Assembly (NCBI GenBank): GCA_964527425.1
Contig: CAZGOA010000002.1
Span: 73,346 to 137,345 of the forward strand
DNA from: an uncultured Gammaproteobacteria bacterium
GTDB lineage: Bacteria > Patescibacteriota > Microgenomatia > UBA10105 > UBA927
Length of the DNA stretch: 64,000 nucleotides
Reading direction: 5' to 3'
The translations under genes were made by a program, and so were the position numbers. The notes under the pieces were generated by a model. That model saw only the letters and a program-made list of their open reading frames with translations. It made no database searches and was not told where the DNA came from. Of the stretch, positions 10,622 through 63,504 are shown piece after piece. How positions within the stretch are numbered: the stretch's first letter is position 1; every line of letters begins with the position of its first letter.

Positions 10622-10650
10622 AATACTCTGTACTGTATAAAATCTTTTTT

Positions 10651-35286: not shown

Positions 35287-35377
35287 GCTATCGGTATACT
35301 TGACGATTGAATACAGCTCTAGTAGCGTAGATAGTAGCTAACACCAGATAGTCTATTATCTCTATTTTTATATTTAC

Positions 35378-36850: not shown

Positions 36851-37880
36851 TATGAAAAACATTTCAAAATTCGCTGTGACTCTTGGCTTATTAATTACTT
36901 CTCTATTAATTGCAACGACGGCAGTATTAGTAATTCAATTAAGAAACCGTCAGGCAATAACAGATTTACCACCTGAGGCCGCAGTTGATGCGTGTAAAAT
37001 AGTATTTACGATTGATCCGGTGTGCAAAACTGACTTTACCCTCCTTCCTCCTGAGTCACCAGAAAATACACCAACACCTTCCGTTTTACCAACCGTAACA
37101 ATTTCACCACAATGCACAAGTGCGTGTGATCCTGCAGGAAGAAACCAGCAGTGTCCAACAAATCACAGCTGCGCACCAGCAAACCATCCTAATGCTAATA
37201 CCTGCATATTAACTGCATGTGTACAAAATCCTGATCTTTGTAACAGCACAAGCTGCTCACTATTACCAACACCGCCTTCAACTAATACACCCACCCCACA
37301 AGCTACTAACACTCCAACAGTACGTGCAACAAATACACCGATAAATACACCGACAAATACACAAATTCCTCCAACAAACACTATTGCATCCACTAGTACA
37401 CCAAATCCAACCGCAACACCAAATCCTTTATGCGGATCATCATGCGATCCTGATGGGTCAAGCAATCAATGTCCATCGAATCATACCTGTGCACCAGATA
37501 GTCATCCAAATGCCAATACCTGTATTCTCACTTCGTGTGTACAAAATCCAAGCCTATGCTCAAATAACAGCTGCACAGTCCTCCCAACACCAACAGCTGT
37601 ACGTACGTCAACACCGACTCAACCAATTGCATACTCACCGTCATCTACGCCCATACCAGGCTCATGTAATGCTAACTGTTCGACAGATAGTAATTGTGCA
37701 AACAACTTAGTATGCTCAGGTGGTACGTGCCGCAACCCAGAATGCACTGAGCAAGCTAATTGTTCATGCTCGATACAGCCAACGCCAGAAATTCCTGTAA
37801 CAGGCACAGGAACTACTCTAGTAGGTATTGGTATAATTGTTGGAGGAATACTACTCTTACTGTTAGGATTAGCATTTTAA
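36834..37880 (+). CDS. Cysteine-rich repeat surface protein with a C-terminal EIPVTG sorting signal
   Basis: N-terminal signal anchor. Two ~55 aa 8-Cys repeats (CxxxCDPxGxxxQCPxNHxCAPxxHPNANTCILTxCVQNPxLC) and a third degenerate Cys-rich module. The C-terminus reads PEIPVTGTGTTLVGIGIIVGGILLLLLGLAF. Confidence 0.5.
   Translation: MEFGNNMKNISKFAVTLGLLITSLLIATTAVLVIQLRNRQAITDLPPEAAVDACKIVFTIDPVCKTDFTLLPPESPENTPTPSVLPTVTISPQCTSACDPAGRNQQCPTNHSCAPANHPNANTCILTACVQNPDLCNSTSCSLLPTPPSTNTPTPQATNTPTVRATNTPINTPTNTQIPPTNTIASTSTPNPTATPNPLCGSSCDPDGSSNQCPSNHTCAPDSHPNANTCILTSCVQNPSLCSNNSCTVLPTPTAVRTSTPTQPIAYSPSSTPIPGSCNANCSTDSNCANNLVCSGGTCRNPECTEQANCSCSIQPTPEIPVTGTGTTLVGIGIIVGGILLLLLGLAF
37114..37598 (+). 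repeat. Intragenic duplicated ~165-nt module encoding the 8-Cys domain, two copies at about 37114-37278 and 37431-37598
   Basis: The two nucleotide segments are roughly 75% identical. Compare tgcacaagtgcgtgtgatcctgcaggaag… with tgcggatcatcatgcgatcctgatgggtc…, and …aatacctgcatattaactgcatgtgtacaaaatcc… with …aatacctgtattctcacttcgtgtgtacaaaatcc…. Confidence 0.7.
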
Positions 37881-37884
37881 CACT

Positions 37885-38391
37885 ATGAATACACAGCCAA
37901 ACAACCAAGATTTTCCAGACCTATCAATACTTATGAATACACAACCGGTTCATGATCCGACGCCACCACCAAGTCATGCACAAAAAAAGCGCTCACCAAT
38001 ACTAGGGTTGTCTATCCTGCTACTCATCTTATTTTTTGGTGCAACTAGTGCTATTCTCATCTGGCAAACTCAATCAAGAGAAACTATTGCACGAGTTGAA
38101 ACACAAGCCGAAGAACCCACTGATACAGTGCCAAAATCCTGTAAACGTCTGACCATTTATAAAGATGGAGTCGCTGTAACTGACTATAATACACTTAGAG
38201 CTGGTGACACTGTAACCTTAGCTACTCCCATTGGTTCTGCAGTTAAAGCGAGATTTACTATTAATAAAACAGAGGTAGAATCGACAAAAGTTACCTTTAA
38301 TAATGAGTTCATCGTTGACTATACATTCCCCTTGGATATGCGTGCCGTTCGTATCAAGGTAGAGCGAAAAATAGATGGCATCTGGCAATAA
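37885..38391 (+). CDS. Small bitopic surface protein, paralogue of 35378-36850
   Basis: N-terminal DFPDLSILMNTQP motif. TM (ILGLSILLLILFFGATSAILIW). C-terminal domain CKRLTIYKDGVAVTDYNTLRAGD…KIDGIWQ, alignable with the C-terminus of the 490 aa protein. Confidence 0.5.
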   Translation: MNTQPNNQDFPDLSILMNTQPVHDPTPPPSHAQKKRSPILGLSILLLILFFGATSAILIWQTQSRETIARVETQAEEPTDTVPKSCKRLTIYKDGVAVTDYNTLRAGDTVTLATPIGSAVKARFTINKTEVESTKVTFNNEFIVDYTFPLDMRAVRIKVERKIDGIWQ

Positions 38392-38474: not shown

Positions 38475-39395
38475 ATGATTTCTTTTGTTTATAAACGAGC
38501 CCATGATACTGTTCCCCAAACCAGAGATGAATTTACTTATGGTGCATGGGTACATGTAGAATCTCCAACAAATGAAGACCTTATATATTTAAGTGATACC
38601 TTTAACTTAGAAAAAAGCTTGTTAACCGATGCATTAGATATCAACGAAGTTCCTCGTATTGAACAAGAAGAAGGTGCCATTTACCTGTTTACCCGCTTTG
38701 TGGTATCTCAAAAAGATAGAGTATTCACAACTCCTGTATTAATTATCTATAGAAAGAAAGTCATTATAACTATTGCTCCCAAAACTGTCCCTCAGGTTAA
38801 TGCCATCATGTCTCAAAAAGGAAACTGGAGTACCTATGACACAGAAGGGTTTGTGCTATTACTCCTCTCTACCTTAAACACTACAGTTGAGCGTTCATTA
38901 AATACCATCTCACGACTCATACAACAATCTAAAATAAAAGCAGAACGAATAGGTACAAAAGAACTATTATTTTTAGTAGATATGGAAAACAGTTTATATG
39001 ACATTAATGGACTTCTAGTACGTTTAGAAAATTTAGTGTCTACTCTCCTGTCTAAGTCATGGTTAAAACGTACAGAAGAACAAGAAGAAATATTAAAAGA
39101 TATTTACTTAGCAATTCAGCAAATGCTAGATATCGTTAAAGAAAATATCAGAACGGTCGTAAATACCCGCGATGCAGTATCAACAATAATGACTGCTAAT
39201 CTTAACCGCGTCATCAAACTCTTTACCTCACTGACGGTCTTGTTAACTGTCCCAATGCTTGTAGCTACATTTTATGGAATGAATGTCACGTTACCGTTGT
39301 CTCAATCTCCTACCGCATTTGTAACGATCATAATGGGTACAATAATCGTATCTTTAGGACTACTTATTTTATTTGTTAAAAATGATTGGTTGTAG
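38475..39395 (+). CDS. corA: CorA-family magnesium/cobalt transporter
   Basis: Cytoplasmic N-domain and two C-terminal TM helices with the YGMN signature (LVATFYGMNVTLP). Confidence 0.7.
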   Translation: MISFVYKRAHDTVPQTRDEFTYGAWVHVESPTNEDLIYLSDTFNLEKSLLTDALDINEVPRIEQEEGAIYLFTRFVVSQKDRVFTTPVLIIYRKKVIITIAPKTVPQVNAIMSQKGNWSTYDTEGFVLLLLSTLNTTVERSLNTISRLIQQSKIKAERIGTKELLFLVDMENSLYDINGLLVRLENLVSTLLSKSWLKRTEEQEEILKDIYLAIQQMLDIVKENIRTVVNTRDAVSTIMTANLNRVIKLFTSLTVLLTVPMLVATFYGMNVTLPLSQSPTAFVTIIMGTIIVSLGLLILFVKNDWL

Positions 39396-40431
39396 CAGAA
39401 AAAGAAGCTTCTATATATGCACGTAACGCTTCTGAAGAATTAATTGGTATCAAGACATATTTCCCCTCATAAAGTCTTTCTTCAGGATGAATAAGTTGTG
39501 ATTCAAGAGATACTTTCTGAAACGATAACACATTACGATTCTGCAGAAATAATCTAATAAACTGTAATATGTCATCCGTTTGCACGTCGGTTATTATGCG
39601 ATTAAGCAGAATGTAATAAAGTTTAGAAACTCGCTCAGCAGAATACCAATCTATCGGATTTTTTAATTTTGATAACACAGCTTCTATCAATTCTTCTTGT
39701 CTTCTTGCACGCGCAAAATCTGTACCCTCATCGCCACTTGCATGCCTGCTTCGAACATATTGTAAAGCTCTTTCTCCATCCATTATTTGATTGCCTGATT
39801 CAAAATTGATTGTTTGATACCGACATCTAAATAATGGATCTCCATTGCATGTATCATTCTCTTTTCCTGCGATTGGAAACTGATTATCAATAAATGGTGT
39901 AGTTACATTTACAGACACACCACCCAATACATTAATAGCCTCTTGAAATGCTTCAAAATCGATAAGAAGAGTGTAATGAACAGGTATACCTGTAATTTCT
40001 TTAATAATCTCTTTGGTAAATCCAATGCCCCCACCTGTGCGTCCTTGAACATTGCCATAATAATATGCAGTATTTATGCGATCTCTTAACGTATCAGACC
40101 AAAGATCCCTGGGAATCGGTAAGATGATTGATCGCTGTGCTCTATTGGTCGATAACGAAATTATTTGAATAGTATCAGTTAAATCAGATCCTTCATGTTG
40201 TTTGCCGCCAATACCTAATAACAATATATTTATTCTTCCATTATGCTGTTGTATCGAATCAGATTTAAGATGAAGGTAGAGATCCAGTATACTTAAACCT
40301 ACAGATTGTAATAGTAGTACTGAGGCAATACTAAATAATAATAGACCAACGACTACACTCATAATACCACTTAAGAAAAGCAGTTTACCTATGCGTCGTT
40401 GTTTAAAAGGCTTCTTGGGATTCATGATCAT
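39376..40431 (-). CDS. LytR-CpsA-Psr (LCP) family cell-wall glycopolymer ligase
   Basis: N-terminal TM and an LCP domain (…INILLLGIGGKQHEGSDLTDTIQIISLS…RDLW…). Confidence 0.75.
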   Translation of the reverse strand: MIMNPKKPFKQRRIGKLLFLSGIMSVVVGLLLFSIASVLLLQSVGLSILDLYLHLKSDSIQQHNGRINILLLGIGGKQHEGSDLTDTIQIISLSTNRAQRSIILPIPRDLWSDTLRDRINTAYYYGNVQGRTGGGIGFTKEIIKEITGIPVHYTLLIDFEAFQEAINVLGGVSVNVTTPFIDNQFPIAGKENDTCNGDPLFRCRYQTINFESGNQIMDGERALQYVRSRHASGDEGTDFARARRQEELIEAVLSKLKNPIDWYSAERVSKLYYILLNRIITDVQTDDILQFIRLFLQNRNVLSFQKVSLESQLIHPEERLYEGKYVLIPINSSEALRAYIEASFSATTNHF

Positions 40432-50301: not shown

Positions 50302-51735
50302 ATGTTAAATAAATTCTATATTACGACAGCTATTCCATATGTGAACGCAAAACCTCATATTGGTCATGCACTAGAGTTTGTTCAGGCCGATACCATAGCT
50401 CGATATCAAAAATTATTAGGAAAAGAGGTAACCCTTCTCTCAGGAGGGGATGAAAACGCTCTAAAGAATGTACAGGCTGCTGAAACAGTTGGTAAAGATG
50501 TCCAGACTTTTATAGACGAAAATAGTCAAAGTTTTAAGGAACTCGCAGTTAAACTATCAGTACAATTTGACATTTTCCAAAAAGGTTCTGATAAAAAACA
50601 TCACTACCCTTCAAGTCAAAAATTATGGCAATTATGCGATAAAGCTGGTGATATATACAAAAAATCATACGAAGGTTTGTATTGTTTAGGCTGTGAAGCT
50701 TTTTATACAGAAGATGAATTAAACGAGAATGGGGAATGCTTCGAACACCCTGGTAAAAAACTACAAATGATTAAAGAAGAAAATTATTTTTTTAAACTCA
50801 AAAAATATGAATCAGAAATTGTACGACGTCTTGAATCAAAGGAAATCAACATTATTCCAGAGTTCAGAAAAAACGAAGTATTATCGTTTCTTAAACAAGG
50901 ACTTCAAGACATAAGTATTTCAAGGTCTAATGAACGAGCAAAAAATTGGGGTGTCCCAGTACCAGATGATCCAAATCAAAGAATTTATGTTTGGTTTGAC
51001 GCGCTGAATATATACCAAAGTGGCATTGGGTTTGGATGGGATGAATCTTCCTATAATAAATGGTGGCCAGCAGATGTTCATGTAATTGGGAAAGGAATAT
51101 CCAGATTTCATGCAGTATATTGGATAGCTTTTTTATTATCAGCTCAGCTTGAATTACCTCGTTCAATTTTTATTCATGGATATTTTACCGTAAATGGACA
51201 AAAAATGAGCAAAACCCTCGGAAATGTCATCGATCCCCTCCTTCTCATTAATTACTATGGGATAGATCCTCTGCGCTATTATTTTCTTCGTGAAATCCCC
51301 GCATATAATGACGGTGATTTCACAGAGGACAGACTGAAAGAAATTTATAATGCAGATCTGGCAAATGGATTAGGTAATCTTGTATCTAGAATTGCAAAAT
51401 TAGCATCTACTATTTCTGTACCCTACTCTTCTATTGAATTTGAAGCTATCCAACCATCTGAATATAAAAAAGCCATGCAAGAATTTCGTTTTCATGATGC
51501 GTTAATAATCATCTGGAAACAGATTAAAGAACTAGATATCTATGTTAACAACAAGGAACCGTGGAAACTTAAAGGAAAAGATTTTGAAACAGTCATTATC
51601 CATTGTGTAACTCAAATTCGAATTATTGCAGTACTTTTACAACCATTTCTGCCAAATACAGCAGAGGCCATACTAAAACAATATAATTCTGAAAATATAC
51701 AGCCTAATACTCCCCTCTTTCCGAGGTTAACGTAA
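50302..51735 (+). CDS. metG: Methionyl-tRNA synthetase (short form without the C-terminal tRNA-binding domain)
   Basis: HIGH-region motif (PYVNAKPHIGH) and KMSKS (KMSKTLGN). 477 aa. Confidence 0.9.
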   Translation: MLNKFYITTAIPYVNAKPHIGHALEFVQADTIARYQKLLGKEVTLLSGGDENALKNVQAAETVGKDVQTFIDENSQSFKELAVKLSVQFDIFQKGSDKKHHYPSSQKLWQLCDKAGDIYKKSYEGLYCLGCEAFYTEDELNENGECFEHPGKKLQMIKEENYFFKLKKYESEIVRRLESKEINIIPEFRKNEVLSFLKQGLQDISISRSNERAKNWGVPVPDDPNQRIYVWFDALNIYQSGIGFGWDESSYNKWWPADVHVIGKGISRFHAVYWIAFLLSAQLELPRSIFIHGYFTVNGQKMSKTLGNVIDPLLLINYYGIDPLRYYFLREIPAYNDGDFTEDRLKEIYNADLANGLGNLVSRIAKLASTISVPYSSIEFEAIQPSEYKKAMQEFRFHDALIIIWKQIKELDIYVNNKEPWKLKGKDFETVIIHCVTQIRIIAVLLQPFLPNTAEAILKQYNSENIQPNTPLFPRLT

Positions 51736-51736
51736 T

Positions 51737-52507
51737 ATGTTTATTGATACTCATTGTCATTTAACATTTCCTGAATTTGACATAGATAGAAATGAACTCA
51801 TAGGAAATGCAAAAAAAGCAAAAGTTAAATATTTTATAGTTCCAGGTATAGATCTCCTTTCATCAAAACAATCTATCGAACTAGCAATGAAACATCCTTC
51901 CTGTATTCGATCATCGATAGGATTTCATCCGTATGAAGCTCAAGACAATCCAGATAGCACAAAACTTCAGCCACTCATAAATGAATTTGTCGTAGCAATT
52001 GGTGAATGCGGATTAGATTACCACATGTATAAAGGGGAAGAAGCAATAAGCAAAAAAACAAATCAAATACGAATATTCAGAGATCAAATTGAAATAGCTA
52101 TAGCTCATTCTTTACCGCTTATTATGCATTGTAGAGATGCATTTGATGATTTTTTTGATACATTGGATAACTATGCAGGACAAATAACTGGTGTAATTCA
52201 TTGTTTTTCTGGGGGCTTACAAGATATACGAGCTGCTCTATCAAGAAATTTATATATGGGAATAGATGGTAACCTTACCTATTCTAAATATCTACAAGAA
52301 ATAGTACCTTCTATACCATTACCATCACTCCTACTTGAAACTGATAGTCCCTATTTAACTCCCCTACCAAATAGAGGTAAACGCAATGAACCAAAATATC
52401 TAACCTACACTGCAAAAAAAGCTGCTACTTTATTCAATGTTTCTGTAAACGAAATCGCACTTCAAACGACAGCGAATGCAAAAAATCTCTTTCATCTTCC
52501 CATATAA
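51737..52507 (+). CDS. tatD: TatD-family metal-dependent DNase
   Basis: The N-terminus is MFIDTHCHL, with conserved His/Glu/Asp positions. It sits in the conserved position immediately after metG. Confidence 0.85.
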   Translation: MFIDTHCHLTFPEFDIDRNELIGNAKKAKVKYFIVPGIDLLSSKQSIELAMKHPSCIRSSIGFHPYEAQDNPDSTKLQPLINEFVVAIGECGLDYHMYKGEEAISKKTNQIRIFRDQIEIAIAHSLPLIMHCRDAFDDFFDTLDNYAGQITGVIHCFSGGLQDIRAALSRNLYMGIDGNLTYSKYLQEIVPSIPLPSLLLETDSPYLTPLPNRGKRNEPKYLTYTAKKAATLFNVSVNEIALQTTANAKNLFHLPI

Positions 52508-52631
52508 ATAGGTATTCCCTCTACTTTCAACCACAAAATACAGGTATGATAATACTATCTCTGTTATACTTACAACCTGATGCAGCTACAAAGTAATTGA
52601 TGATTGTTAATCATTGTAAAATAGTAACCTT

Positions 52632-54113
52632 ATGCGAAGAATTGTTACAAGATATCCAGAAAAAACAAGACGATTAATAGAAATTCTTATTCCTTTAACT
52701 TCATGGATTATTATTACAATGCCATTTTGGCTTTCTTTTTGGAATCCTGTTGCTATGGGATACATATTAATCACTTTCAACGTTTATTGGTTTTATAAAT
52801 CATTAACACTCGCGATTAGTGCCATTAAGTCCTTTATAACTTTACAGGCTCATATTAAAGTTGATTGGTTAGCTCAAATCAAACATCACCCCGATTTTAA
52901 TAAAATACATCACATAATTATTATTCCCGAATATAAAGAACCAATTCACATACTAAAAAGAACAATAGAAAATTTATTAACTACAGATTTTCCTAAAGAA
53001 AAAATCACTTTAGTATTGGCAACAGAAAGCAAAGATACTGAAGCAACAGAAACTGGAAATGTTCTTTCTCATGTATTCAAAGATAAGGTCGGTCATTTTC
53101 TTATTACTACCCACACACTATTACCCGGTGAAGTAGCAGGAAAATCATCTAATATGGCAGCCGCAGCAGAAATCATAGAAAAAAAACTGGAAGAATGGAA
53201 TATTCCGATCGAATGGACTACAGTCACATCTTGTGACGCCGATGCACTAATTCATCCAAAATATTTATCTTGTGTTACACAGAAATTTCTCACAAATAAA
53301 GACAAATTCGAAACATTTTATCAAGGTGCCATAATGTTTTATTCAAACATTTGGCGGATACCTCTCCCTAATCGTTTTCTAAATATTCTCAATAGTATCT
53401 GGAATTTAGCATCACTATCACAACCTTCAAGACTCATTAATTTTTCAACCTATACTCTCCCTTTTAAAACAGCTAAAGATGCTGGATATTGGGGTAAAGA
53501 TGTTATACCAGAAGATTACCATATGTTTTTTAGAGTATATTTTAATAAGGGTGAGAAAGTTAAAACTCAGCCTATTTTTTTACCAATACTTGTTGATGCT
53601 GCCGAAAGCAAGGGATTTTTTAGAACTATGGTAAATCAGTACGAACAATCTAAACGTTGGGCATGGGGAGTTTCCGATATACCTTTTGTAGTGAAAGGTA
53701 TGATTATACATTCAAACATTGCTTTGATAGATAGAGTTATTCGCTTGTTAAAATTACTTGAACATCATATTTTCTGGCCAGCTAACTGGTTTTTACTAAC
53801 TATAGGAGGAATCGTGCCGGGATTGGTAAATCCAAACTTTGCAAGAACAAGTTTCGGATTTCAACTTGCCCAGTTATCTTCAGGAATATTAACACTTTCT
53901 ACAATTGTACTTTTGGTTGTCTTTTATATAGATTGGAAATTAAAACCACCAAAACCTGAACATATACGGAATTGGACGCTACCGTTTTTATATTTACAGT
54001 GGTTTACTCTTCCTATTATTTCATTTTTCCTTGCAGCTCTCCCTGGGTTGGATGCACATACTCGTTTGCTTTTAGGTAAACGACTAGAGTATCGAGTAAC
54101 AGAAAAGGTATAA
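52632..54113 (+). CDS. Membrane-integrated family-2 glycosyltransferase (cellulose-synthase-like topology)
   Basis: N- and C-terminal TM bundles flank a GT-A domain (IIIPEYKEP…LVLATESKD…GKSSNMAAAAE…TSCDADALIHP). Confidence 0.6.
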   Translation: MRRIVTRYPEKTRRLIEILIPLTSWIIITMPFWLSFWNPVAMGYILITFNVYWFYKSLTLAISAIKSFITLQAHIKVDWLAQIKHHPDFNKIHHIIIIPEYKEPIHILKRTIENLLTTDFPKEKITLVLATESKDTEATETGNVLSHVFKDKVGHFLITTHTLLPGEVAGKSSNMAAAAEIIEKKLEEWNIPIEWTTVTSCDADALIHPKYLSCVTQKFLTNKDKFETFYQGAIMFYSNIWRIPLPNRFLNILNSIWNLASLSQPSRLINFSTYTLPFKTAKDAGYWGKDVIPEDYHMFFRVYFNKGEKVKTQPIFLPILVDAAESKGFFRTMVNQYEQSKRWAWGVSDIPFVVKGMIIHSNIALIDRVIRLLKLLEHHIFWPANWFLLTIGGIVPGLVNPNFARTSFGFQLAQLSSGILTLSTIVLLVVFYIDWKLKPPKPEHIRNWTLPFLYLQWFTLPIISFFLAALPGLDAHTRLLLGKRLEYRVTEKV

Positions 54114-54142
54114 TACAATTGAATCAGTATTAATTTTCAACT

Positions 54143-55516
54143 ATGTTAGATTTTATTATTAATCACTCTCCAATTTATTACTTAGTACAAAGCTTATGGA
54201 GAGATGAAGCATTTTCAGTGTTAATTGCAGAGCGTCCGATTGCTTCATTCCTTGGCTCCTTAAATTTTGAGCCACCAATTTATTATGTTCTCCTTCATAT
54301 TTGGGTAAGAATATTCGGAACCAGTGAAATTTCAGTACGTTCACTTTCGTTTGTGGGATTTGTTTTAGCTACAATTGTTGTAATTTTTTGGGCTGAACAG
54401 TTATTTAAAAAACATTGGTTGTCATGGATGACACCGGTGCTTTTTTTCTTTAATCCCATGTTACTGTATTACGCCTTTGAGGTAAGAGCCTATGGGTGGT
54501 TTATGTTTTTTTCAACACTTTCTCTGTTTGCCTATACATCAAAAAAATATAAGTTATTGTTTATTGCAAATGTTTTAGCCTTTTACACCCACTCCTATGC
54601 TATTTTTATTCCTTTTGTGCAATTAGCCCATTATCTTATGATAAATGTAAAAACAAAACACTTTTTTACATTTAAACAACTCTATACTAGTCCAATTATT
54701 AGAATGCTGATTGGATATTCGCTAGTCATCGCTCCATGGACCTTTGTTATTGCTCAAGAAGCTTTAAAAGGTAGACCAACATGGTATTATCCAGTAGATC
54801 TTCAGTTAGTATTTGCAGTATTAGGAAATATGTTTGTAGGGTACGATGGCACACCGGGAGGAATGTGGAAATATACCTCAATTCTATCAGTATTGTTACT
54901 TATACTTTTTTTAATAGGAATCAGGCAAAAACAATATCGATTTAATACTTCTTATTTACTACTTGCTGTTCTATTACCACTTTGTATAGTCATTGGCGTA
55001 TCATTCCACAAACCCTTATTTGTAAATAGATATTTAATTTATGTCACAATCGCACAAGTTATACTTATTGCATATAGTATTTATCAAATGAACTCCAAAA
55101 TAATACAAAAGGGAATTCTGGTGGGTTTAATTATGTTATACCTTTTTGTAAATACTCAGTTCCCATTAAAAAAAGCCAAGTTAGATATCCGATCAACTTT
55201 ACAAATAGCAAATTCTTTACGAGGACCCAAAGACCTTTTATATGTTTCTAGTCCTCTCATTTTTTTCGAGGCAATCTACTATACAAAAGATCGTCAACAT
55301 GTATATCTATACAATCCAGAGAATAATACCTTCCCCTGGTATATAGGTGAAAGTGCGTTTGATGTAAAACAGATGACCAATGTGTATCCTGAATACCCCT
55401 CTAGAGCAGTTATTGTTGGAGAAGATAACTCTATAACAATTGCATATCGTACTACTCAAAACCCAATACCGATCACTGAAACTATACAGTCATCTCCTTC
55501 GGATTCAACACAATAA
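54143..55516 (+). CDS. GT-C fold glycosyltransferase (ArnT/PMT, GT39/GT83-like). It is polyprenyl-phosphate-sugar dependent.
   Basis: About 11 TM helices. The first extracytoplasmic loop carries an RDEAF (DE) motif, as in ArnT/PMT. Confidence 0.5.
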   Translation: MLDFIINHSPIYYLVQSLWRDEAFSVLIAERPIASFLGSLNFEPPIYYVLLHIWVRIFGTSEISVRSLSFVGFVLATIVVIFWAEQLFKKHWLSWMTPVLFFFNPMLLYYAFEVRAYGWFMFFSTLSLFAYTSKKYKLLFIANVLAFYTHSYAIFIPFVQLAHYLMINVKTKHFFTFKQLYTSPIIRMLIGYSLVIAPWTFVIAQEALKGRPTWYYPVDLQLVFAVLGNMFVGYDGTPGGMWKYTSILSVLLLILFLIGIRQKQYRFNTSYLLLAVLLPLCIVIGVSFHKPLFVNRYLIYVTIAQVILIAYSIYQMNSKIIQKGILVGLIMLYLFVNTQFPLKKAKLDIRSTLQIANSLRGPKDLLYVSSPLIFFEAIYYTKDRQHVYLYNPENNTFPWYIGESAFDVKQMTNVYPEYPSRAVIVGEDNSITIAYRTTQNPIPITETIQSSPSDSTQ

Positions 55517-55518
55517 CC

Positions 55519-55905
55519 ATGATTGCAAAAATCAAAAAAACGATTTCAGCAATAAGAAAACGAATAGAAATACTAACAACCTCACCAATTATGAGAGTAG
55601 TAGTGATACTTCCTCCTGTTTTAATTCTGATCATGACTATATTGATTGTTATGTATCTATCTCAATTGCCTCCCAAATTACCCTTCTTTTATTCACGACC
55701 ATGGGGAGAAGAACAATTAGTAAAACCGATATATCTCTTTATGCTTCCAATAAGTGCTCTTTTTTGGTATGTAAGTTCAATCTTGCTTATACATGTACAA
55801 ACATACCAATATAGAGTATTTGCTCAAATACTATTAATAGCACAAGCGATTTTATCAATCGCTATGATCTATGTTTTAATACGTATTATGCTGTTAGTAA
55901 CCTGA
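55519..55905 (+). CDS. Small polytopic membrane protein within the glycosylation cluster
   Basis: 128 aa with four hydrophobic helices. It is tightly packed between the GT-C and WecA-like genes. Confidence 0.35.
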   Translation: MIAKIKKTISAIRKRIEILTTSPIMRVVVILPPVLILIMTILIVMYLSQLPPKLPFFYSRPWGEEQLVKPIYLFMLPISALFWYVSSILLIHVQTYQYRVFAQILLIAQAILSIAMIYVLIRIMLLVT

Positions 55906-55906
55906 T

Positions 55907-56980
55907 ATGTATATACTTTATGCATTTCTTCTTTCATCATTAATTACTCTGCTATTTACTCCTCTTGCTATTATTGTTGCAAAAAAATATAAGCTGCTTG
56001 ATAATCCCAAAACTCGTTATCATCCTGCAAGGACCCACATTGGTACTATCCCAAGAGCGGGTGGACTCTCTATCTGTTTCGGTTTACTTCTAACAATGAT
56101 GATATTCCTTCCATGGAACACGATTACGATGAGTCTTATTATCGGGTGTATTATATTAACTATTGTTGGATTATTTGACGACAAAAAAGATGTTTCTCCA
56201 AAAATACGATTACTAACAAATGCATTTGTTGTATTCTTAATACTAGCCTCAGGTGTATCAATTCCATATATCACTAATCCCTTTAATGAAGGTGTTATTT
56301 ATTTAAATACCTGGACCATAACCATAGGAATGTTTACTTTTTCTCCGATCGCTTTTATAGCTGCGTTTATATGGCTTTACTGGACTATGAATGTTGTTGG
56401 CTGGTCAGCTGGGGTTGATGGACAACTACCTGGAGTGGTTGTAATAGCGGCAACGGTATTAGGAATACTTTCGTTACGATATAGTGCAATCGATGCGAGC
56501 CAAATTCATGTAACAATATTATCTGCTATAGTGGCTGGAAGTTTTTTAGGCTTTCTTCCATGGAATTTTTATCCACAAAAAATAATGCCAGGATATAGTG
56601 GAAAAACGCTTGCCGGATTTTTACTTGGAATCTTAGGAATATTATCTTACGCAAAATTAGGAACTGCTCTCTTAGTACTCGGTATTCCTATGATTGATGC
56701 TTTATTTACACTGAGTAGACGGTTGTTATTAGGTAAGTCTCCTATTTGGGCAGATAGGGGCCACCTTCATCATCATTTACTAAACCTCGGATGGAGTAAA
56801 AGAACTATCGCCTTGTTCTACTATAGCATCTCGGCTATACTTGGCCTTGTAGCACTTACCGTTTCATCAAAAGAAAAAATCGTTTTTTTTCTGATTTTAG
56901 CTTTTGTCTTAGGTGCTTTTCTTATATGGGTAAATTGGGCATGGCAATCCTTAAAGCAGCCAGACCAAGACAATGGCTGA
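55907..56980 (+). CDS. Polyprenyl-phosphate N-acetylhexosamine-1-phosphate transferase (WecA/TagO/MraY family, GT4)
   Basis: Polytopic protein with a DDxxD-like motif (GLFDDKKD) and the family NVVGWSAGVDGQLPG motif. Confidence 0.7.
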   Translation: MYILYAFLLSSLITLLFTPLAIIVAKKYKLLDNPKTRYHPARTHIGTIPRAGGLSICFGLLLTMMIFLPWNTITMSLIIGCIILTIVGLFDDKKDVSPKIRLLTNAFVVFLILASGVSIPYITNPFNEGVIYLNTWTITIGMFTFSPIAFIAAFIWLYWTMNVVGWSAGVDGQLPGVVVIAATVLGILSLRYSAIDASQIHVTILSAIVAGSFLGFLPWNFYPQKIMPGYSGKTLAGFLLGILGILSYAKLGTALLVLGIPMIDALFTLSRRLLLGKSPIWADRGHLHHHLLNLGWSKRTIALFYYSISAILGLVALTVSSKEKIVFFLILAFVLGAFLIWVNWAWQSLKQPDQDNG

Positions 56981-57864
56981 AAAACTTTGCACTATTCTCC
57001 ACTATTTTTTTTACTGGACATTTATTTGAATTTACTCCAATTATTCAGACACTTTCTGCTTTTGCAGCATTTTGTTTTTTAGCTTCATCGAATTATATTT
57101 TTAATGATATTCTCGATATACATCGAGATAGAAAACATCCTTTCAAAAAATTTAGACCTATTGCAAGCGGTGCTCTTCCAATATCAATGGCATGGGTTAC
57201 TTCTATTATTTTTCTCTTAATTGGACTAGGCATCAGTGCATCCTTAGGTCAAATGTTTTTTATAATGGCTGCACTTTTTTCTATTCTAGAATATTCATAT
57301 TCATTATACTTAAAACATATTAGTGTTATCGATATTTTAACTATTACACTCGCATATTTTCTTCGAGTATACGCGGGAGAAGCTGCTACCGGTTATCATA
57401 TTTCTATATGGCTTGCACTTGCTGTTTTATGTTTAGCACTGTTTCTAGCAATTGGAAAACGACGTGCAGAACTAACACTGATACAAGGATTTGAAGGGAT
57501 TATTCCTCGTGATACTAGAGAGACGTTATCCAATTACTCAGAAAAATTACTGGATACATATACTGCTATGTTTGCGAACTCTACCTTTTTATCGTATGCC
57601 ATGTTTACATTTGTTACGCAAACCTCTCATAGGGGATTTCTATTCACAACTAGCTCAGATTTTGGGATTGAAGTACCTGATAGAAAATGGATGATGTTAA
57701 CGATTCCTTTTGTACTATATGGAATAATGCGCTATATGCAATTAATTTATGAAGGGAAGGGTGAATCTCCAGAAAAACTTGTAACTTCAGATACACCGTT
57801 ACTAATTACTATAGTTTTGTGGGCTTGTAGCACATTCACGATCTTATACATTATTGGTGGTTAA
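56926..57864 (+). CDS. UbiA-family prenyltransferase resembling decaprenyl-phosphate phosphoribosyltransferase (DPPR synthase)
   Basis: ARPRQWLKN, followed by NDILDIHRDRKHPFKKFRPIASG (NDxxDxxxDRxHPxKxxRPIASG). Its start overlaps the end of the WecA-like gene. Confidence 0.6.
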   Translation: MGKLGMAILKAARPRQWLKNFALFSTIFFTGHLFEFTPIIQTLSAFAAFCFLASSNYIFNDILDIHRDRKHPFKKFRPIASGALPISMAWVTSIIFLLIGLGISASLGQMFFIMAALFSILEYSYSLYLKHISVIDILTITLAYFLRVYAGEAATGYHISIWLALAVLCLALFLAIGKRRAELTLIQGFEGIIPRDTRETLSNYSEKLLDTYTAMFANSTFLSYAMFTFVTQTSHRGFLFTTSSDFGIEVPDRKWMMLTIPFVLYGIMRYMQLIYEGKGESPEKLVTSDTPLLITIVLWACSTFTILYIIGG

Positions 57865-57877
57865 TGTTTCTTAAGCG

Positions 57878-58879
57878 CTATTCGATTTCTTCTGCATACT
57901 GAGAACTAATCCATCCTTGTTGTTGTTCAAATGTAATCTGATACCATGTCCCTTGTGTAGATACTACATCATACTCTTGACCAGGAGTTGCTCTCCCGAT
58001 TTCTGCAGAAGCAGTCGTTGGTTCTTTTCTTACTCTCAAAAACCCTACAGGAGTATCCGTAATCCGTACTCTCGATGGAGTTTCTGATGTTGATGGTATT
58101 GTTGGTTTAATGGTTGGCTTAATGGTAGGTTTTATAGCTGGTGTTGATTGAGCTACCTGTTGTGAAGGTGTTGGTTGTATAGAGGACGATGGTGTTGATT
58201 CTTGAATTTCAAATAACGTTGGTGAAGCAATTTGACTTGGAGATAATGCAAGAGAAGCAGAAATAATAGCTTTATATCCAGATGTTAATTTTACTTTGAC
58301 AGTTCTTGGTTCAAATCCAGGCGAGTTAATAACAACAGCATGATCTCCTTCAGATATATCAATTAAAGAGAGAGGTGTAACGCCTCTAGCCTGATCATCT
58401 ATTATGACATTTGCTCCATCTGGAACTGATATTATTGAAAGTTCTGCTTTATTACTGGTAGTCTTCTCTAACCAAAGTTGTTCTCCAGCAGACGTTAACT
58501 CTGATTCAGATAAATCTCGATTAATATATGTTAATGTGTTTCCTCCTATTTTCACCCTTCCCTGCCAGGATGTTAAAGGCACTGTTGAAGTTTCTGGTAC
58601 CAATCGAATTGAATATTCGCCAACATCTACTTTCTGTTCAAGTGGAGTTTTACCAATATCTCTATTTTCTAACAACACTCTTGCAGCTGTATTACTGGAA
58701 ACTTTCAATACACCTTGTCTATTGCTTCTTCCTAAAACAATATACCGTATACTTAGTACTAAAATTACAATTAAAACGATAAAAATAACAAAAAAAACTA
58801 TTTTACGCCTCATGATACTGTTAATGGTAACATCGATATCTACTTCATTCAATGTATATCCACTATAATAAGGATACAA
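57878..58879 (-). CDS. Membrane-anchored PEGA-domain protein with a C-terminal bacterial SH3 domain
   Basis: N-terminal TM. PEGA-like segments (PDGANVIIDDQARGVTPL). A KPTIKPTIKPTI linker. C-terminal SH3b-like segment (…YDVVSTQGTWYQITFEQQQGWISSQY). Confidence 0.45.
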   Translation of the reverse strand: MYPYYSGYTLNEVDIDVTINSIMRRKIVFFVIFIVLIVILVLSIRYIVLGRSNRQGVLKVSSNTAARVLLENRDIGKTPLEQKVDVGEYSIRLVPETSTVPLTSWQGRVKIGGNTLTYINRDLSESELTSAGEQLWLEKTTSNKAELSIISVPDGANVIIDDQARGVTPLSLIDISEGDHAVVINSPGFEPRTVKVKLTSGYKAIISASLALSPSQIASPTLFEIQESTPSSSIQPTPSQQVAQSTPAIKPTIKPTIKPTIPSTSETPSRVRITDTPVGFLRVRKEPTTASAEIGRATPGQEYDVVSTQGTWYQITFEQQQGWISSQYAEEIE

Positions 58880-58896
58880 TATAAACTATTCATATT

Positions 58897-59667
58897 ATGG
58901 AATTGTGGCAAGCAATACTACTGGGGTTAATTGAAGGAATTACAGAATTCCTCCCAATTTCTTCAACCGGACATATAATTTTAACAAGTCACATTTTAGG
59001 ACTAAAACACACACTATTCTTATCATCATTTGAAATTATTATTCAATTAGGTGCAATATTGGCAGTACTTCTTTATTATAGTAAGAGACTATTACTCAAC
59101 GTAAAAACAGCAATATTCCTCATCATATCGTTTACACCTACAGCTTTGGTAGGGATTATACTTTATAGACCCATTAAGCAGATACTATTAGGTAACGTAC
59201 CAATCACTATTACGTCTCTAATAGTAGGTGGAGTGTTATTTTGGATGCTAGAGATTTATATTAAAAACAAAAATAATACGTATCAGATTAAAGATATGAA
59301 ACCTATTCAAGCATTCATTATTGGTATTGGCCAGTCAGTTTCAATTATTCCGGGAGTTTCTCGTTCAGCAGCTTCAATGTTTACGGGTATGCTTACCGGT
59401 CTTACAAGAAAAGAAGCAGTTGAATATTCTTTTCTACTTGCAATTCCAACCATACTTGCCGCAAGTGGTTATGACCTCATTAAAATGTCGTATCAGTTTT
59501 CTAGAAATGAATACATGTTGTTATTTGCAGGGTTATTTACAGCATTCATATCATCACTAATTACCCTTCAATGGTTTTTACGCTTTATTAGCACTCACTC
59601 ATTCATTCCCTTTGCTATCTATAGAATAGTATTAGGATTGATCTTTATATTAGTGTGGTTACTCTAA
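58897..59667 (+). CDS. uppP: Undecaprenyl-diphosphate phosphatase
   Basis: The N-terminus is MELWQAILLGLIEGITEFLPISSTGH, with a second conserved motif PGVSRSAASMFTG. Confidence 0.85.
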   Translation: MELWQAILLGLIEGITEFLPISSTGHIILTSHILGLKHTLFLSSFEIIIQLGAILAVLLYYSKRLLLNVKTAIFLIISFTPTALVGIILYRPIKQILLGNVPITITSLIVGGVLFWMLEIYIKNKNNTYQIKDMKPIQAFIIGIGQSVSIIPGVSRSAASMFTGMLTGLTRKEAVEYSFLLAIPTILAASGYDLIKMSYQFSRNEYMLLFAGLFTAFISSLITLQWFLRFISTHSFIPFAIYRIVLGLIFILVWLL

Positions 59668-60555
59668 TTAAGATCCAACTGCATAGAGAATATCTCCTTT
59701 TTTAACCCAACCTCCTTTATGTCGCCATAAAAACGTCCCATTCCCCGTAGAAGAAATCCTACTATTACGAGTAGAAAGTAAAGACGAAAAAACCCCCAGG
59801 ATATCATTTTTCTGTATATAGCTATCTTTCTGATACAATTGCCATATTCCATATTCTGGAGCAGTATAATAATGAATTTTTGTTAATAACTTTTCACTAG
59901 TGATTGTTTGTTGACCCCAATTATTTATTAATGCATTAACCCAGCGAATATGCTCATTAACATCAATATCTTCTGCAGTACCTAGCTGACCACATTCTAA
60001 AACAAGATAGACGATTCTGTCTTGCGCTATAGTTTTTACTTTTTCCCAAGGTGCAAAAACTTTTGTTACTGACTGGATAGAATGCAATAAATGAATCGCC
60101 TTCTGTTGTAGTACTTTATCACCATAAGGAAATGCCCAAATGAATGGTGACAATTCTTCAGCATTACTGCCACCATGTAAATCCAACCACAGATCTATCT
60201 GATTGTTAATACTATTAAATATATGAAATATTATTTTCTCTGAGTGAGTTCCTTCTTTCTTTCCTGGATAAATATGTTTGAGAAATTTATTATCTAGAGG
60301 ATTGTAACTCAATCCAACAGCATGACCATGGATGTTTACTCTCGGGAATATAATCCTCCTACCTTTCCAGGTGTCATCATCAAGGAACTGTTTACTTAAC
60401 CGCCAAGCCGCTTCTTGTCCAGCATATTCATCTCCATCCATCCCAGCTGTAATAAGAATTACTGGTCCATCGCCTCGCTGAATATCTACATACGGAAGTT
60501 CAACAGTGTTATCGATATGTAAGACACGTACTTCCGTAATAGGCACATTAATCAT
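59668..60555 (-). CDS. Succinylglutamate desuccinylase/aspartoacylase (AstE/AspA, M14-like) family protein
   Basis: ILITAGMDGDEYAG (metal-site motif, with Asp in place of the first His) and LDLHGG. 295 aa. Confidence 0.4.
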   Translation of the reverse strand: MINVPITEVRVLHIDNTVELPYVDIQRGDGPVILITAGMDGDEYAGQEAAWRLSKQFLDDDTWKGRRIIFPRVNIHGHAVGLSYNPLDNKFLKHIYPGKKEGTHSEKIIFHIFNSINNQIDLWLDLHGGSNAEELSPFIWAFPYGDKVLQQKAIHLLHSIQSVTKVFAPWEKVKTIAQDRIVYLVLECGQLGTAEDIDVNEHIRWVNALINNWGQQTITSEKLLTKIHYYTAPEYGIWQLYQKDSYIQKNDILGVFSSLLSTRNSRISSTGNGTFLWRHKGGWVKKGDILYAVGS

Positions 60556-60634: not shown

Positions 60635-62119
60635 ATGAATAACGATAAAGATAACATCATAGAACAAACAAAACTGGACCTGCTGGATGACTTAGAATTG
60701 GTAGAATATCTTCTCAAAGATCGTCAGCAAATTCTCGAAACGAAAAAAAATATACTTAGTAGTACTATTCATACTAAAGAACTTCTTACTCTGATACTAA
60801 CCCACCTTAATACAATTAATAATGAATCAAAAAAACTAAGTATCTCTATTACTAATGCACAATCCCAGGCTGAATTATACGCAGCTTGTGATCAAGTAGG
60901 TATTCTCTATAATCAAATACGACAGCAGATGAGTTCTATTGCTACATTAGCATTAGCAACTGATTGGCAATCACCTTCATTTTCAGCTTCTCTTACCCAA
61001 CAAGCAGGTTCACAAGAAGGCATGATTTATCAGTCAATTAACGATTATAAGAGAGACCAGCATCATGATGCAAAAAATTACGAAAAAAAATTCAGGAAAC
61101 AATATATCCGCTACCCTTTTATAAATCCGGTAAGAATTTTTGCTGTTAATTCTGGTATGGCTGCATTAACTACAATTATTAGTTTTCTGATAGGTCAAGA
61201 TATTACAAAAAATAGATCAATCGTTGTTGGAGCTCATTCATATTTTGAAAATAAAATACTGTTAAAGCGTTTTTTTCTCTCTCAATATAAAGAAGTCAGT
61301 GAATATGATCTTGAACGTATTAAAGAAATCGCTCTAAAAGAGAAGCCAGCAGTATGGTTTTTTGATTCTCTATGTAACGATCAAACGGTACTTATTCCAC
61401 CACTTAATCAAATAATCCCACTCCTTCATAGTATTAAAAATTATCATCCTTACATTGTGGTCGACAATACAGGTTTATCTATAACATATCAACCATTTTC
61501 AAACATCTCTTTTACTCCTAAGCAACTTATTGTATGGGAATCACTACTTAAGCACCATCAATTCGGCTTAGATCGAGTAAATGGAGGAATTATTTATGCC
61601 TCATGTACAAATGCATCTGAATTATACACGTATCGTGACCATGGAGGCACAAATATTTCCGATTTACAAGTGTTATCTCTACCCACACCAAATAAAAAAA
61701 TACTCTTAAAAAGACTGCAGCGACATCAAAGAAACCATATGCTGTTAGTAAATTCATTACATACTCTACTTAATAATCTTCCAAATTTATCAGTAGATTC
61801 TGTAATATCCCCTCATTTACAAGATCTCACGCAAACTTCTTATAAAGGAACGGTTTGTACCCTACAATTCACCCCACCTTATAGATCTGTAAAGGGATAC
61901 AACCGGTTCCTTAATACTATTTTATCAACTGCTAAACAGCACAATGTTAATATCGTTGCTGGTACAAGTTTTGGATTACCTACAACCCGGATTTATATTC
62001 CTGCTTCAAGAAAAGGACAAGGTATACCTTTTTTTCGTATCGCTGTAGGAACAGAACCCTATCTGATCGCTAATACAGTAAGCCACGTATTTAAAGAAGT
62101 AATTTCGAATTATACATAA
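60635..62119 (+). CDS. Divergent Cys/Met-metabolism-type PLP-dependent enzyme with a ~150 aa N-terminal coiled-coil extension
   Basis: Motifs align with the cystathionine gamma-synthase/lyase family in order: NSGMAAL (NTGMSAI); VVDNTGLSI (VVDNTFLSP); LLKHHQFGLDRVNGG (CTKYLNGHSDVVAG, Lys conserved); AGTSFGL (AESLGGVESL). Confidence 0.4.
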   Translation: MNNDKDNIIEQTKLDLLDDLELVEYLLKDRQQILETKKNILSSTIHTKELLTLILTHLNTINNESKKLSISITNAQSQAELYAACDQVGILYNQIRQQMSSIATLALATDWQSPSFSASLTQQAGSQEGMIYQSINDYKRDQHHDAKNYEKKFRKQYIRYPFINPVRIFAVNSGMAALTTIISFLIGQDITKNRSIVVGAHSYFENKILLKRFFLSQYKEVSEYDLERIKEIALKEKPAVWFFDSLCNDQTVLIPPLNQIIPLLHSIKNYHPYIVVDNTGLSITYQPFSNISFTPKQLIVWESLLKHHQFGLDRVNGGIIYASCTNASELYTYRDHGGTNISDLQVLSLPTPNKKILLKRLQRHQRNHMLLVNSLHTLLNNLPNLSVDSVISPHLQDLTQTSYKGTVCTLQFTPPYRSVKGYNRFLNTILSTAKQHNVNIVAGTSFGLPTTRIYIPASRKGQGIPFFRIAVGTEPYLIANTVSHVFKEVISNYT

Positions 62120-62172: not shown

Positions 62173-63504
62173 ATGGTATTATATTTACATTTATTCTTAT
62201 TATTCCTCCTTCAAAGCATACTTATTATTACACGTCCAATTTACTTCTATCCCGAAATGTATTTACTTCCCTGGATAACATCATTTGGGAATATCCCGTA
62301 TGTTAATTTCCTAGATCATCATGGATTTTTACTCAATATAATATTGGCACCTTTCTCAAGAGACCAGAGTTTTACGGCATTGCAAATAATTTTTCTTTTT
62401 TTTCAAACAGTAAATCTCGTTTGTATACTCTATATTCTAAAAGCATTCCTGCCCCGGATTATTAGTATTCTTTTTGGACTATTTTACATAACATTAAATT
62501 TCTTCTTCGTTGAAAATATCTTATGGTATGAAACAATTATTACCTCATGTTTTTTGCTCATCTATATTGCTATCCGTATAAATCATTCTTTCAAACGAAA
62601 TATTCTTATTGGTCTCATTACCGCTACAGCAAGTTTTATAAAACCAAATGCATTACTTATTATCTTGCCTTTACTCGTTTTAAAAAAATCAATGTATATA
62701 CTAATAACAATTTTCCTGTTATGGATATTTGTGATACTGTTCTATATCTCTATCGGAGGATTTGATTCATTCTATTTAGGACTCTTTACCTACAATAAAT
62801 ATTTATTCGAAGAATATTCTGGGTTACCACTTTCCCATGTAAAATTTTATCTCGTTCTTCTCATAACTCTTATACTCGGGGTTTGTTTAACAAACTGGAA
62901 TAACAAAACAAAATATGTATTCTATTCACTCTCATTTTTATTTATATCACTTATTTTTTTAGGAATGGGTTACGGAAAAGAACATATGGTACCTTTAAGC
63001 ACGTTTTATGTTATTACTTTGGCTCATCTTTGGTCCATGAGCACTTCATATAAAAAACACTTATTACTTTGTATTATTCTACTTACCTTTCTTCTGTCAG
63101 CATTTCAAGTCAAAAGAACATACAGTAGTCTTACGAATAGACCTAGTGTTCAACATGCTCCCTACACCCAACAAGTTTCACATCTTCTTAAACCATATGT
63201 ACATGATATGCCATCTTTGTTTGTAATCAGTCATCAAGTTGAACATTATTACCAATATTATTACTTTGATATTCTTCCACAAACGCAGTATCCAATCGCA
63301 TTTCCTCTTATCGAAAATATTCTGCCGGATTATGAAAAAACTGTTGTGCATGAACTACAATCGAAACATATAGTCTATATTTTAATCGAGCATTCTAAGT
63401 ACAATACGTATCTTACTCGATGGCCTCATCTAATGAGATATATCCAACTATATTATTCTCCGGTGCTCATACAACCCACATTTACGTTATACAAACTGAA
63501 TTAA
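62173..63504 (+). CDS. Polytopic membrane protein, possibly a GT-C-type glycosyltransferase
   Basis: 443 aa with at least 10 hydrophobic helices. No soluble domain. Confidence 0.35.
   Translation: MVLYLHLFLLFLLQSILIITRPIYFYPEMYLLPWITSFGNIPYVNFLDHHGFLLNIILAPFSRDQSFTALQIIFLFFQTVNLVCILYILKAFLPRIISILFGLFYITLNFFFVENILWYETIITSCFLLIYIAIRINHSFKRNILIGLITATASFIKPNALLIILPLLVLKKSMYILITIFLLWIFVILFYISIGGFDSFYLGLFTYNKYLFEEYSGLPLSHVKFYLVLLITLILGVCLTNWNNKTKYVFYSLSFLFISLIFLGMGYGKEHMVPLSTFYVITLAHLWSMSTSYKKHLLLCIILLTFLLSAFQVKRTYSSLTNRPSVQHAPYTQQVSHLLKPYVHDMPSLFVISHQVEHYYQYYYFDILPQTQYPIAFPLIENILPDYEKTVVHELQSKHIVYILIEHSKYNTYLTRWPHLMRYIQLYYSPVLIQPTFTLYKLN

Follow-up and report, generated by a model that had tools for sequence, protein, structure and literature searches.

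A conserved five-gene cluster in Microgenomates encoding a predicted polyprenyl-phosphate phosphoribosyltransferase and a GT-C-fold protein: a candidate pathway for lipid-linked ribose

Five co-directional genes at positions 52632-57864 of a 64,000-nucleotide (nt) stretch of contig CAZGOA010000002.1 (NCBI GenBank assembly GCA_964527425.1, positions 73,346 to 137,345; the whole stretch is hereafter the window) encode a membrane glycosyltransferase of family 2 (GT2), a glycosyltransferase of the GT-C type, a small protein with three transmembrane (TM) helices, a WecA-like transferase and a UbiA-family enzyme, as indicated by open reading frame (ORF) listing and family scans. The source organism belongs by GTDB lineage to the Microgenomatia (Microgenomates), a class of the Candidate Phyla Radiation (CPR; Patescibacteria). 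The names borne by close homologues of the cluster proteins, Candidatus Gottesmanbacteria or Patescibacteria, lead to the same placement. Our favored interpretation, held with modest confidence, is that the five genes form one operon, inherited across the Microgenomates, which builds or decorates an envelope glycan on polyprenyl-phosphate carriers by making a lipid-linked ribose-type donor and using it outside the membrane. The UbiA-family protein is of the decaprenyl-phosphoribose (DPPR) synthase type, a GT-C protein is present in the operon and in about 60 of 80 related loci, and a lipid-linked pentose donor used outside the membrane, as an earlier sequence-only reading of this stretch had proposed, is the best reading of these data because the enzymes with solved structures whose folds are closest to that of the GT-C protein all take their sugars from polyprenyl or dolichyl monophosphate, at the non-cytoplasmic membrane face.

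The phosphoribosyltransferase-type UbiA protein

The UbiA-family protein passes the NCBIfam model for decaprenyl-phosphate phosphoribosyltransferase (NF008978; 212.1 bits against a cutoff of 207), with a match spanning protein residues 5-309 and positions 32-321 of the 322 in the model. Models for other UbiA subfamilies (heme O synthase, 4-hydroxybenzoate, menaquinone, chlorophyll and archaeal-lipid) yielded 17-48 bits (maximum 47.6) against cutoffs of 180-420, and the generic Pfam UbiA family is also matched. The best match in the PDB was Mycobacterium tuberculosis Rv3806c (8j8j, E 9e-32), followed by AfUbiA (3e-7); BLASTP gave 30% identity to Rv3806c over 226 amino acids (aa; E 2.5e-35), and E values of 1e-3, 0.03 and 0.14 against Escherichia coli CyoE, UbiA and MenA, respectively. 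We used the called gene start at 56941 (307 aa), which is also the start in public assemblies; the longest ORF begins at 56926 (312 aa).

The NDxxDxxxD signature named in the sequence-only reading is present as N60-D-I-L-D64-I-H-R-D68, as is, within WRDEAF, the RDEAF loop that it had noted in the GT-C protein. In the structure of Rv3806c, the pyrophosphate of phosphoribosyl pyrophosphate (PRPP) is held by R22, K87, R90, K143 and Y138, Mg2+ is bound by N73 and D77, the ribose by N73 and Q135, and the 5'-phosphate by K28, Y70 and Y157, and these phosphoribose-binding sites are not conserved across the wider UbiA superfamily (PMC10994848). Ten of 11 Rv3806c ligand residues are identical in the window protein (R13, K19, Y57, N60, D64, K74, R77, Y125, K130 and Y144). 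In an alignment of 45 diverse homologues with identities as low as 34%, the positions equivalent to Rv3806c R22, K28, Y70, N73, D77, D81, K87 and R90 are invariant. A neighbor-joining tree (Poisson distances, 200 bootstraps) joined the window protein, 44 representatives and Rv3806c in one clade, with E. coli UbiA, MenA and CyoE outside it, in 176 of 200 replicates. The placement is thus with Rv3806c and away from the quinone and heme prenyltransferases, and the model score, the best PDB match and the tree together bear out the DPPR-synthase-type assignment made earlier from the letters of the DNA. By its sequence, its PRPP-binding residues and its phylogenetic position, this protein is a predicted polyprenyl-phosphate 5-phosphoribosyltransferase.

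The family is broad, with 1,282 representative clusters at E <= 1e-30, and relatives are carried on plasmids of Rhizobium, haloarchaea, Bacteroidota, cyanobacteria, Lactococcus and actinomycetes. Homologues from Gottesmanbacteria already bear the NCBI name 'decaprenyl-phosphate phosphoribosyltransferase'. A literature search that combined CPR or Patescibacteria with enzymes of this type returned nothing relevant.

Gene order in the window and in related loci

A scan of one genome per GTDB species with a 13-sequence UbiA alignment returned Microgenomates only, and found close relatives in at least 588 species. Synteny was counted in the best 80 of these, with 10-kb flanks and UbiA proteins 43-73% identical; the informatively titled members of this set are Gottesman-, Levy-, Beckwith-, Collier- and Daviesbacteria. 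The order GT2-(GT-C)-small TM-WecA-like-UbiA recurs in approximately 60-76 of the 80 species. The WecA-like gene lies directly upstream of UbiA in 74-76 loci, and the core order of these two genes is common to all but four; the small 3-TM gene directly precedes the WecA-like gene in 67, and a synthase GT2 occupies the equivalent position in 62-63, accounting for most loci whose upstream flank is long enough. Clustering on this scale, kept despite such divergence of the UbiA protein, is far beyond chance. The sequence-only reading had regarded the enzyme as unexpected for this kind of organism, a view that finds no support in the number of species with relatives, the near-universal core order in the best 80, and the names already assigned at NCBI. 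Many of the GTDB records that have the CPR-type order, with UbiA proteins 44-65% identical, are titled 'uncultured Gammaproteobacteria' or 'Pseudomonadales' (L008, L010, L012-L015 and others); these titles are probably placeholders or wrong labels in bulk submissions of metagenome-assembled genomes.

All five genes were recovered with the families and at the positions previously given for them (Table 1), separated by gaps of 29, 2 and 1 nt and then by a 40-nt overlap between the WecA-like and UbiA genes. In the window, the WecA-like stop codon comes 19 nt downstream of the point at which the codon for the conserved UbiA Arg13 begins. Across 70 loci the same offset (+19) was found in 29 related loci, +28 in four and -16 in 25; overall, the stop lies past the conserved Arg codon in 35 of the 70 loci and 16 nt before it in 25 more, such that the two reading frames overlap or nearly abut in most of them. 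This arrangement suggests a conserved translational coupling of the two lipid-phosphate transferases. A promoter and terminator scan of 51600-59800 yielded promoter-like sites in smaller number than shuffled sequence did, and gave no informative terminator.

The boundaries of the cluster are narrower than first described. Six consecutive same-strand genes had been reported; a cluster does exist, but it comprises five co-directional genes, and the next gene (57878-58879) lies on the minus strand. That convergent gene, for a PEGA/SH3 protein, is found downstream in 71-72 of the 80 loci and is thus a conserved neighbor, which may or may not be functionally linked to the operon. The lipid-carrier recycling gene uppP was correctly described as the second gene after UbiA, but was rejected as a member of the cluster, given that it adjoins in only 2 of the 80 related loci; because this adjacency is not conserved, the span 52632-59667 originally assigned to the cluster exceeds the conserved unit. 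On the other side, TatD (51737-52507) was considered as a cluster member and as the missing phosphatase. It occurs upstream in 61 of the 80 loci, but travels with the methionyl-tRNA synthetase gene MetRS (55 of 80 loci), from which it is separated by a 1-nt gap, and was treated as a housekeeping neighbor; the metS-yabD pair is likewise adjacent in Bacillus subtilis. Other recurrent neighbors of the loci are also housekeeping genes: GroEL/ES, M23 peptidase, LepA, MurJ, HrcA, GrpE, PilN/O, MurB, LysRS, GAPDH and PGK.

Table 1. Genes of the five-gene cluster and the two genes that follow it (window positions).
Feature	Position	Strand	Basis
GT2, hyaluronan/cellulose-synthase-like, 493 aa	52632-54113	+	Weak Pfam match, motifs, AlphaFold2/Foldseek
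GT-C fold glycosyltransferase (modelled), 457 aa	54143-55516	+	AlphaFold2/Foldseek, WRDE loop
Small 3-TM membrane protein, 128 aa, family unknown	55519-55905	+	Homologue alignment
WecA/TagO-like polyprenyl-phosphate N-acetylhexosamine (HexNAc)-1-phosphate transferase, 357 aa	55907-56980	+	PF00953
UbiA-superfamily polyprenyl-phosphate 5-phosphoribosyltransferase (predicted)	56941-57864	+	NF008978, Rv3806c match
Membrane-anchored PEGA + Pro/Thr-rich linker + SH3b protein (wall-binding)	57878-58879	-	PF08308 E 2e-19; PF08239 SH3_3 E 1.4e-11
uppP (UppP/BacA)	58897-59667		Second gene after UbiA; PF02673 E 5e-69

Partner proteins, proposed pathway and alternatives

The GT-C protein has no Pfam match, and no PDB sequence match was obtained with the single sequence or with profiles of the two GT-C subfamilies that occur in these loci. 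Its AlphaFold2 model, based on 27 homologues (pLDDT 87, pTM 0.87), supports a GT-C fold: ArnT ranked first in a Foldseek search (E 1.4e-6), the top structural matches were mannosyl and 4-amino-4-deoxy-arabinose (Ara4N) transferases, and the predicted fold is nearer to PMT, ALG and ArnT than to Aft or Emb. The loop W19-R20-D21-E22 is invariant among the homologues. Unlike typical GT-C enzymes, the window-type protein has no TM helix ahead of this catalytic-type loop, and an N-terminal extension that might supply one is impossible because only 29 nt separate the GT2 stop from the start of this gene; the N-terminal 44 residues (54143-54280) would have to reach the outer face without it. In the sister subfamily of Levy- and Beckwithbacteria, TM1 is present before the corresponding YGDEGIY loop. 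The slot between the GT2 and the small gene is filled in these loci by a multi-TM protein of 430-540 aa from one of these two subfamilies, the window subfamily in 18 loci and the second in 42, which together account for about 60 of the 80. The second subfamily matches Pfam PMT_2 in 26 of 37 members, and the two, very divergent as they are, are homologous at the profile level (hhalign 94.8%, E 5e-8).

A further membrane protein in the window touches on this family. The gene at 62173-63504 (+), 4.3 kb downstream of UbiA, encodes a 443-aa multi-TM protein without a Pfam match. Its product aligned with the PMT_2-type family of the GT-C slot over 356 columns (hhalign probability 38.8%, E 3e-4), no alignment was found with the window's own GT-C family, and it may be a second GT-C.

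The GT2 protein scores slightly below the cutoff of Pfam Glyco_trans_2_3 (25.7 bits against 27), and most of its close homologues carry precomputed PF13632 matches. Two TM helices at its N-terminus are followed by a GT-A domain, interface helices and further TM helices at the C-terminus, and its motifs D202-A-D204, E294-D295 and Q339-S-K-R-W343 are invariant in 26 homologues; D, DxD, ED and QxxRW are the classical motifs of processive beta-glycan synthases. No PDB sequence match was found, and a Foldseek search of the PDB with the AlphaFold2 model (pLDDT 74, the C-terminal 60 residues being of low confidence) placed Chlorella virus hyaluronan synthase (HAS; 7sp8, E 5e-9) and BcsA (4p00, E 7e-9) at the top. 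By its motifs and modelled structure, the protein has the fold of processive membrane synthases. A GtrB-type polyprenyl-phosphate-hexose synthase, which would have approximately 310 aa and two C-terminal TM helices, was also considered and was rejected in view of the 493-aa length, the QxxRW motif and the TM bundles at both the N- and C-terminal ends; GtrB was not among the top 50 structural matches. Seven Gottesmanbacteria loci (e.g., L009:5000-5695) carry an extra 231-aa GT2 (PF00535, E 1e-28) between TatD and the synthase GT2, which could make a polyprenyl-phosphate-hexose donor; none is present in the window.

The 357-aa product of the fourth gene matches PF00953 (Glycos_transf_4; E 1.9e-21, 77 bits, cutoff 27). 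Its score against TIGR02380 (wecA) is far below the cutoff (E 1e-29, 103.8 bits against 326), as the mraY model match is below its curated cutoff (E 7e-14), and BLASTP gave 27% identity to E. coli WecA over 294 aa (E 5e-21) and E 3e-7 for MraY. Its sequence, closer to WecA than to MraY in both comparisons, identifies it as a probable WecA/TagO-type initiating transferase, a family member below the WecA equivalog cutoff.

The small 3-TM protein has a basic N-terminus and a conserved loop, LPPxxP(L/F)(F/W)YS(L/R)PWGExxL, after TM1; the loop would face outside because the N-terminus is basic. Weak Pfam DUF1648 matches were obtained for 7 of 47 members (best E 1.5e-3), and neither a PDB match in a profile search nor similarity to one GtrA protein was detected. 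Its identity as a GtrA or SMR flippase was therefore rejected, on the number of TM helices, the weak DUF1648 matches and the missing similarity to GtrA.

These proteins can be arranged in a pathway in which the relations of donors to acceptors, the dephosphorylation and flipping steps and the part played by the 3-TM protein are matters of inference. The UbiA enzyme would combine PRPP and polyprenyl phosphate into polyprenyl-phospho-ribose-5-phosphate at the cytoplasmic face. The donor may keep its phosphate or be dephosphorylated by an enzyme unlinked to the operon, and would then be flipped to the outer face, possibly with the aid of the conserved 3-TM protein. There the GT-C would add ribofuranose units from the donor to a glycan, and the acceptor could be either a polymer extruded by the GT2 synthase or a lipid-linked polymer primed by the WecA-like transferase; an LCP ligase (gene at 39376-40431) could later join this second polymer to peptidoglycan.

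The associated pathway genes were searched for in the window extended by 10 kb at either end (~84 kb) and among the recurrent neighbors of the 80 loci. No DprE1-type (FAD_binding_4/ALO) gene and no DprE2-type short-chain dehydrogenase gene was found in this set, and without a linked epimerase the transferred sugar is more probably ribofuranose than arabinofuranose.

Several observations weigh against this pathway. In the same search space, and in the operon itself, neither a 5'-phosphatase (HAD, PAP2) nor a flippase (MATE, SMR, GtrA) was found, and the UbiA protein has no extra domain in its 307 aa and so no fused phosphatase; two of the proposed steps, dephosphorylation and flipping, are thus without an assigned protein. 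The GT-C is the least fixed component of the operon, being absent from approximately 10 of 63 related loci that have the GT2, the small protein, the WecA-like gene and UbiA. HAS/BcsA-type synthases ordinarily operate without a lipid primer or a GT-C, so that the GT2 may act on its own. At the active site, the equivalent of Rv3806c Q135, which contacts O3 of the ribose, is E122 in the window protein and is variable across the family.

The strongest alternative, though in our judgment an unlikely one, is that the genes share a lipid carrier rather than a pathway, with the GT-C using a polyprenyl-phosphate-hexose made elsewhere, the GT2 making an independent, secreted polymer and the UbiA product serving another acceptor enzyme. 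This would be consistent with the loss of the GT-C from about 10 loci in which UbiA stays, with a hexose donor from the extra GT2 of the seven Gottesmanbacteria loci, with the possible second GT-C at 62173-63504, and with the mannosyl and Ara4N transferases at the top of the structural matches. It would not readily explain why the gene order, with reading frames that overlap or abut, has persisted through a divergence so deep that UbiA identity falls to 43%, nor why GT-C proteins of two such distant subfamilies fill the same slot, and the window operon holds no GtrB-type polyprenyl-phosphate-hexose synthase.

Still less probable is a mycobacterial-type arabinan pathway, in which the UbiA product would be dephosphorylated and then epimerized by DprE1/DprE2 encoded elsewhere, the GT-C being an arabinofuranosyltransferase. 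The sequence-only reading had drawn on the mycobacterial arabinose donor as an analogy, which weakens in light of the DprE1-type, DprE2-type and PAP2 genes missing from the ~84 kb and from the recurrent clusters of the 80 loci. In the characterized Mycobacterium, Pseudomonas and Citrobacter systems, the epimerases are encoded in or near the same locus (PMC11127046), and the similarity of the modelled GT-C to PMT, ALG and ArnT rather than to Aft or Emb also argues against arabinan. It is very improbable that the UbiA protein simply prenylates an aromatic compound or heme, like MenA, UbiA or CyoE, or belongs with the archaeal-lipid-type prenyltransferases, as its generic Pfam match and the JGI labels of several homologues ('4-hydroxybenzoate polyprenyltransferase', 'heme O synthase-like') might suggest, given the passing DPPR-synthase model and low prenyltransferase subfamily scores, the weak BLASTP values for CyoE, UbiA and MenA, their position outside the clade at 88% bootstrap, and the invariance in the window family of the K28 and Y70 equivalents, which are unconserved in the wider superfamily (PMC10994848).

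The interpretation as a ribose-donor pathway can also be taken further, into a more speculative form that we consider doubtful as a whole. The operon would then give the Microgenomates a core pathway to a wall glycopolymer, passed on vertically and built on a miniature arabinogalactan-like logic. The conserved 3-TM 'PWGE-loop' protein would join it as a partner of a new kind, flipping polyprenyl-phosphate-pentose or serving as a subunit of the WecA-like/UbiA pair or of the GT-C. Because no 5'-phosphatase is linked, the GT-C might transfer ribose-5-phosphate, which would yield an anionic, teichoic-acid-like polymer from PRPP.

Comparison with known systems and envelope context

Biochemical work on Citrobacter has shown that pentofuranoses are added outside the cytoplasm by a GT-C acting together with a flippase and a phosphoribose synthase of the UbiA type (Kelly et al., PNAS 2024, PMC11127046). 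In Citrobacter youngae O1, the phosphoribose synthase ORF15 is fused to a HAD phosphatase, ORF14 is a MATE flippase and ORF12 is a GT-C of family GT136 (PMC11127046). The general mechanism put forward in the sequence-only reading was a reasonable core idea, but one that this 2024 study had already published. Functionally, the window operon may be a variant of such three-component systems, as it likewise pairs a UbiA-type phosphoribose synthase with a GT-C, implying transfer of a pentofuranose outside the cytoplasm from a polyprenyl-monophosphate donor. It differs from them in lacking two of the defining parts, the phosphatase (whether as a domain or as a separate gene) and the flippase of the MATE or SMR/GtrA type, and in adding a WecA-like transferase, a synthase-type GT2 and the conserved 3-TM protein of unknown family. 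It is also a vertically conserved core next to housekeeping genes throughout the class, rather than a variable serotype module.

In comparison with Rv3806c, the window UbiA protein is from the same fold family, has the NDxxDxxxD motif, the K/R pyrophosphate cluster and the 5'-phosphate residues in addition to the identity given above, and passes NF008978; unlike in mycobacteria, E122 replaces Q135, no PAP2 phosphatase equivalent to Rv3807c is adjacent, DprE1/DprE2 are not linked, and the UbiA gene overlaps a WecA-like gene. Mycobacterial arabinogalactan assembly (WecA, GlfT1/2, UbiA with DprE1/E2, Aft/Emb and Lcp1) has the same classes of HexNAc-1-phosphate transferase, polymerizing GT2, phosphoribose-lipid synthase and GT-C, with an LCP ligase in the genome, and by analogy the operon layout resembles a miniature pathway of the arabinogalactan type. 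However, four of these enzyme classes are brought together in one 5-kb operon in the window and no epimerases were found there; its GT2 is membrane-embedded and HAS/BcsA-like instead of a soluble GlfT, and its GT-C is structurally nearer PMT/ArnT than Aft/Emb.

A cluster on the Lactococcus cremoris plasmid pF27D (NZ_CP068515.2, locus 6587-11650) comes from a similar, Gram-positive-type envelope context. This exopolysaccharide cluster encodes a 462-aa membrane protein, an annotated DPPR-synthase-type enzyme, GtrA and a HAD-IB phosphatase; a gene for an LCP ligase lies close to them, and the whole is apparently a pentofuranose side-chain module in a food (dairy) bacterium. Its phosphoribosyltransferase is 31% identical to the window UbiA protein (E 1e-24), whereas its phosphatase and GtrA flippase have no counterparts in the window operon; no similarity was detectable between its large membrane protein and the window GT-C, or between its GtrA and the 3-TM protein. 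The operon also differs from the Gtr-type hexose system (GtrA/GtrB/GtrC), since it lacks both a GtrB-type GT2 and GtrA, and from the solved ArnT, PMT and ALG enzymes of the GT-C(A) class and from HAS and BcsA, to which its GT-C and GT2 have no PDB sequence match; its GT-C, moreover, lacks the TM helix before the catalytic loop.

Elsewhere in the window, which has a GC content of ~33-37%, the genes for a sortase, two FemAB proteins, the LCP ligase, MurJ and PilN/PilO indicate a Gram-positive-like envelope. The GC content rises to 0.40-0.42 at 33988-38391, against 0.33-0.37 elsewhere. This segment, directly after PilN/PilO, covers an fn3/Ig-like protein and three ORFs without a Pfam match (35378-36850, 36834-37880 and 37885-38391), which may be pilus-associated or acquired. 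Adjoining the sortase gene (154-849, -) is a gene for a 754-aa protein (853-3117, -) with a weak Baseplate_J-like match (E 5e-5). The 494-aa product of 60635-62119 (+) weakly matches pyridoxal-phosphate-dependent enzymes of Cys/Met metabolism over its C-terminal two-thirds (E 5e-8), and has an N-terminal extension of ~160 aa.

The envelopes of CPR bacteria are almost uncharacterized, and the organisms themselves are largely uncultivated. Both the enzyme family, annotated in these genomes, and the type of mechanism, published in 2024, were already anticipated. That the order of the operon is kept across Gottesman-, Levy-, Beckwith-, Collier- and Daviesbacteria beside housekeeping genes points to a product that is basic to the envelope and not an optional decorating glycan. 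The phosphoribosyltransferase, the GT-C and the 3-TM protein are targets for heterologous expression, and the operon may reveal how a minimal genome handles the phosphatase and flippase steps. It would extend the PRPP-dependent route to lipid-linked pentofuranoses beyond the Proteobacteria and Actinobacteria.

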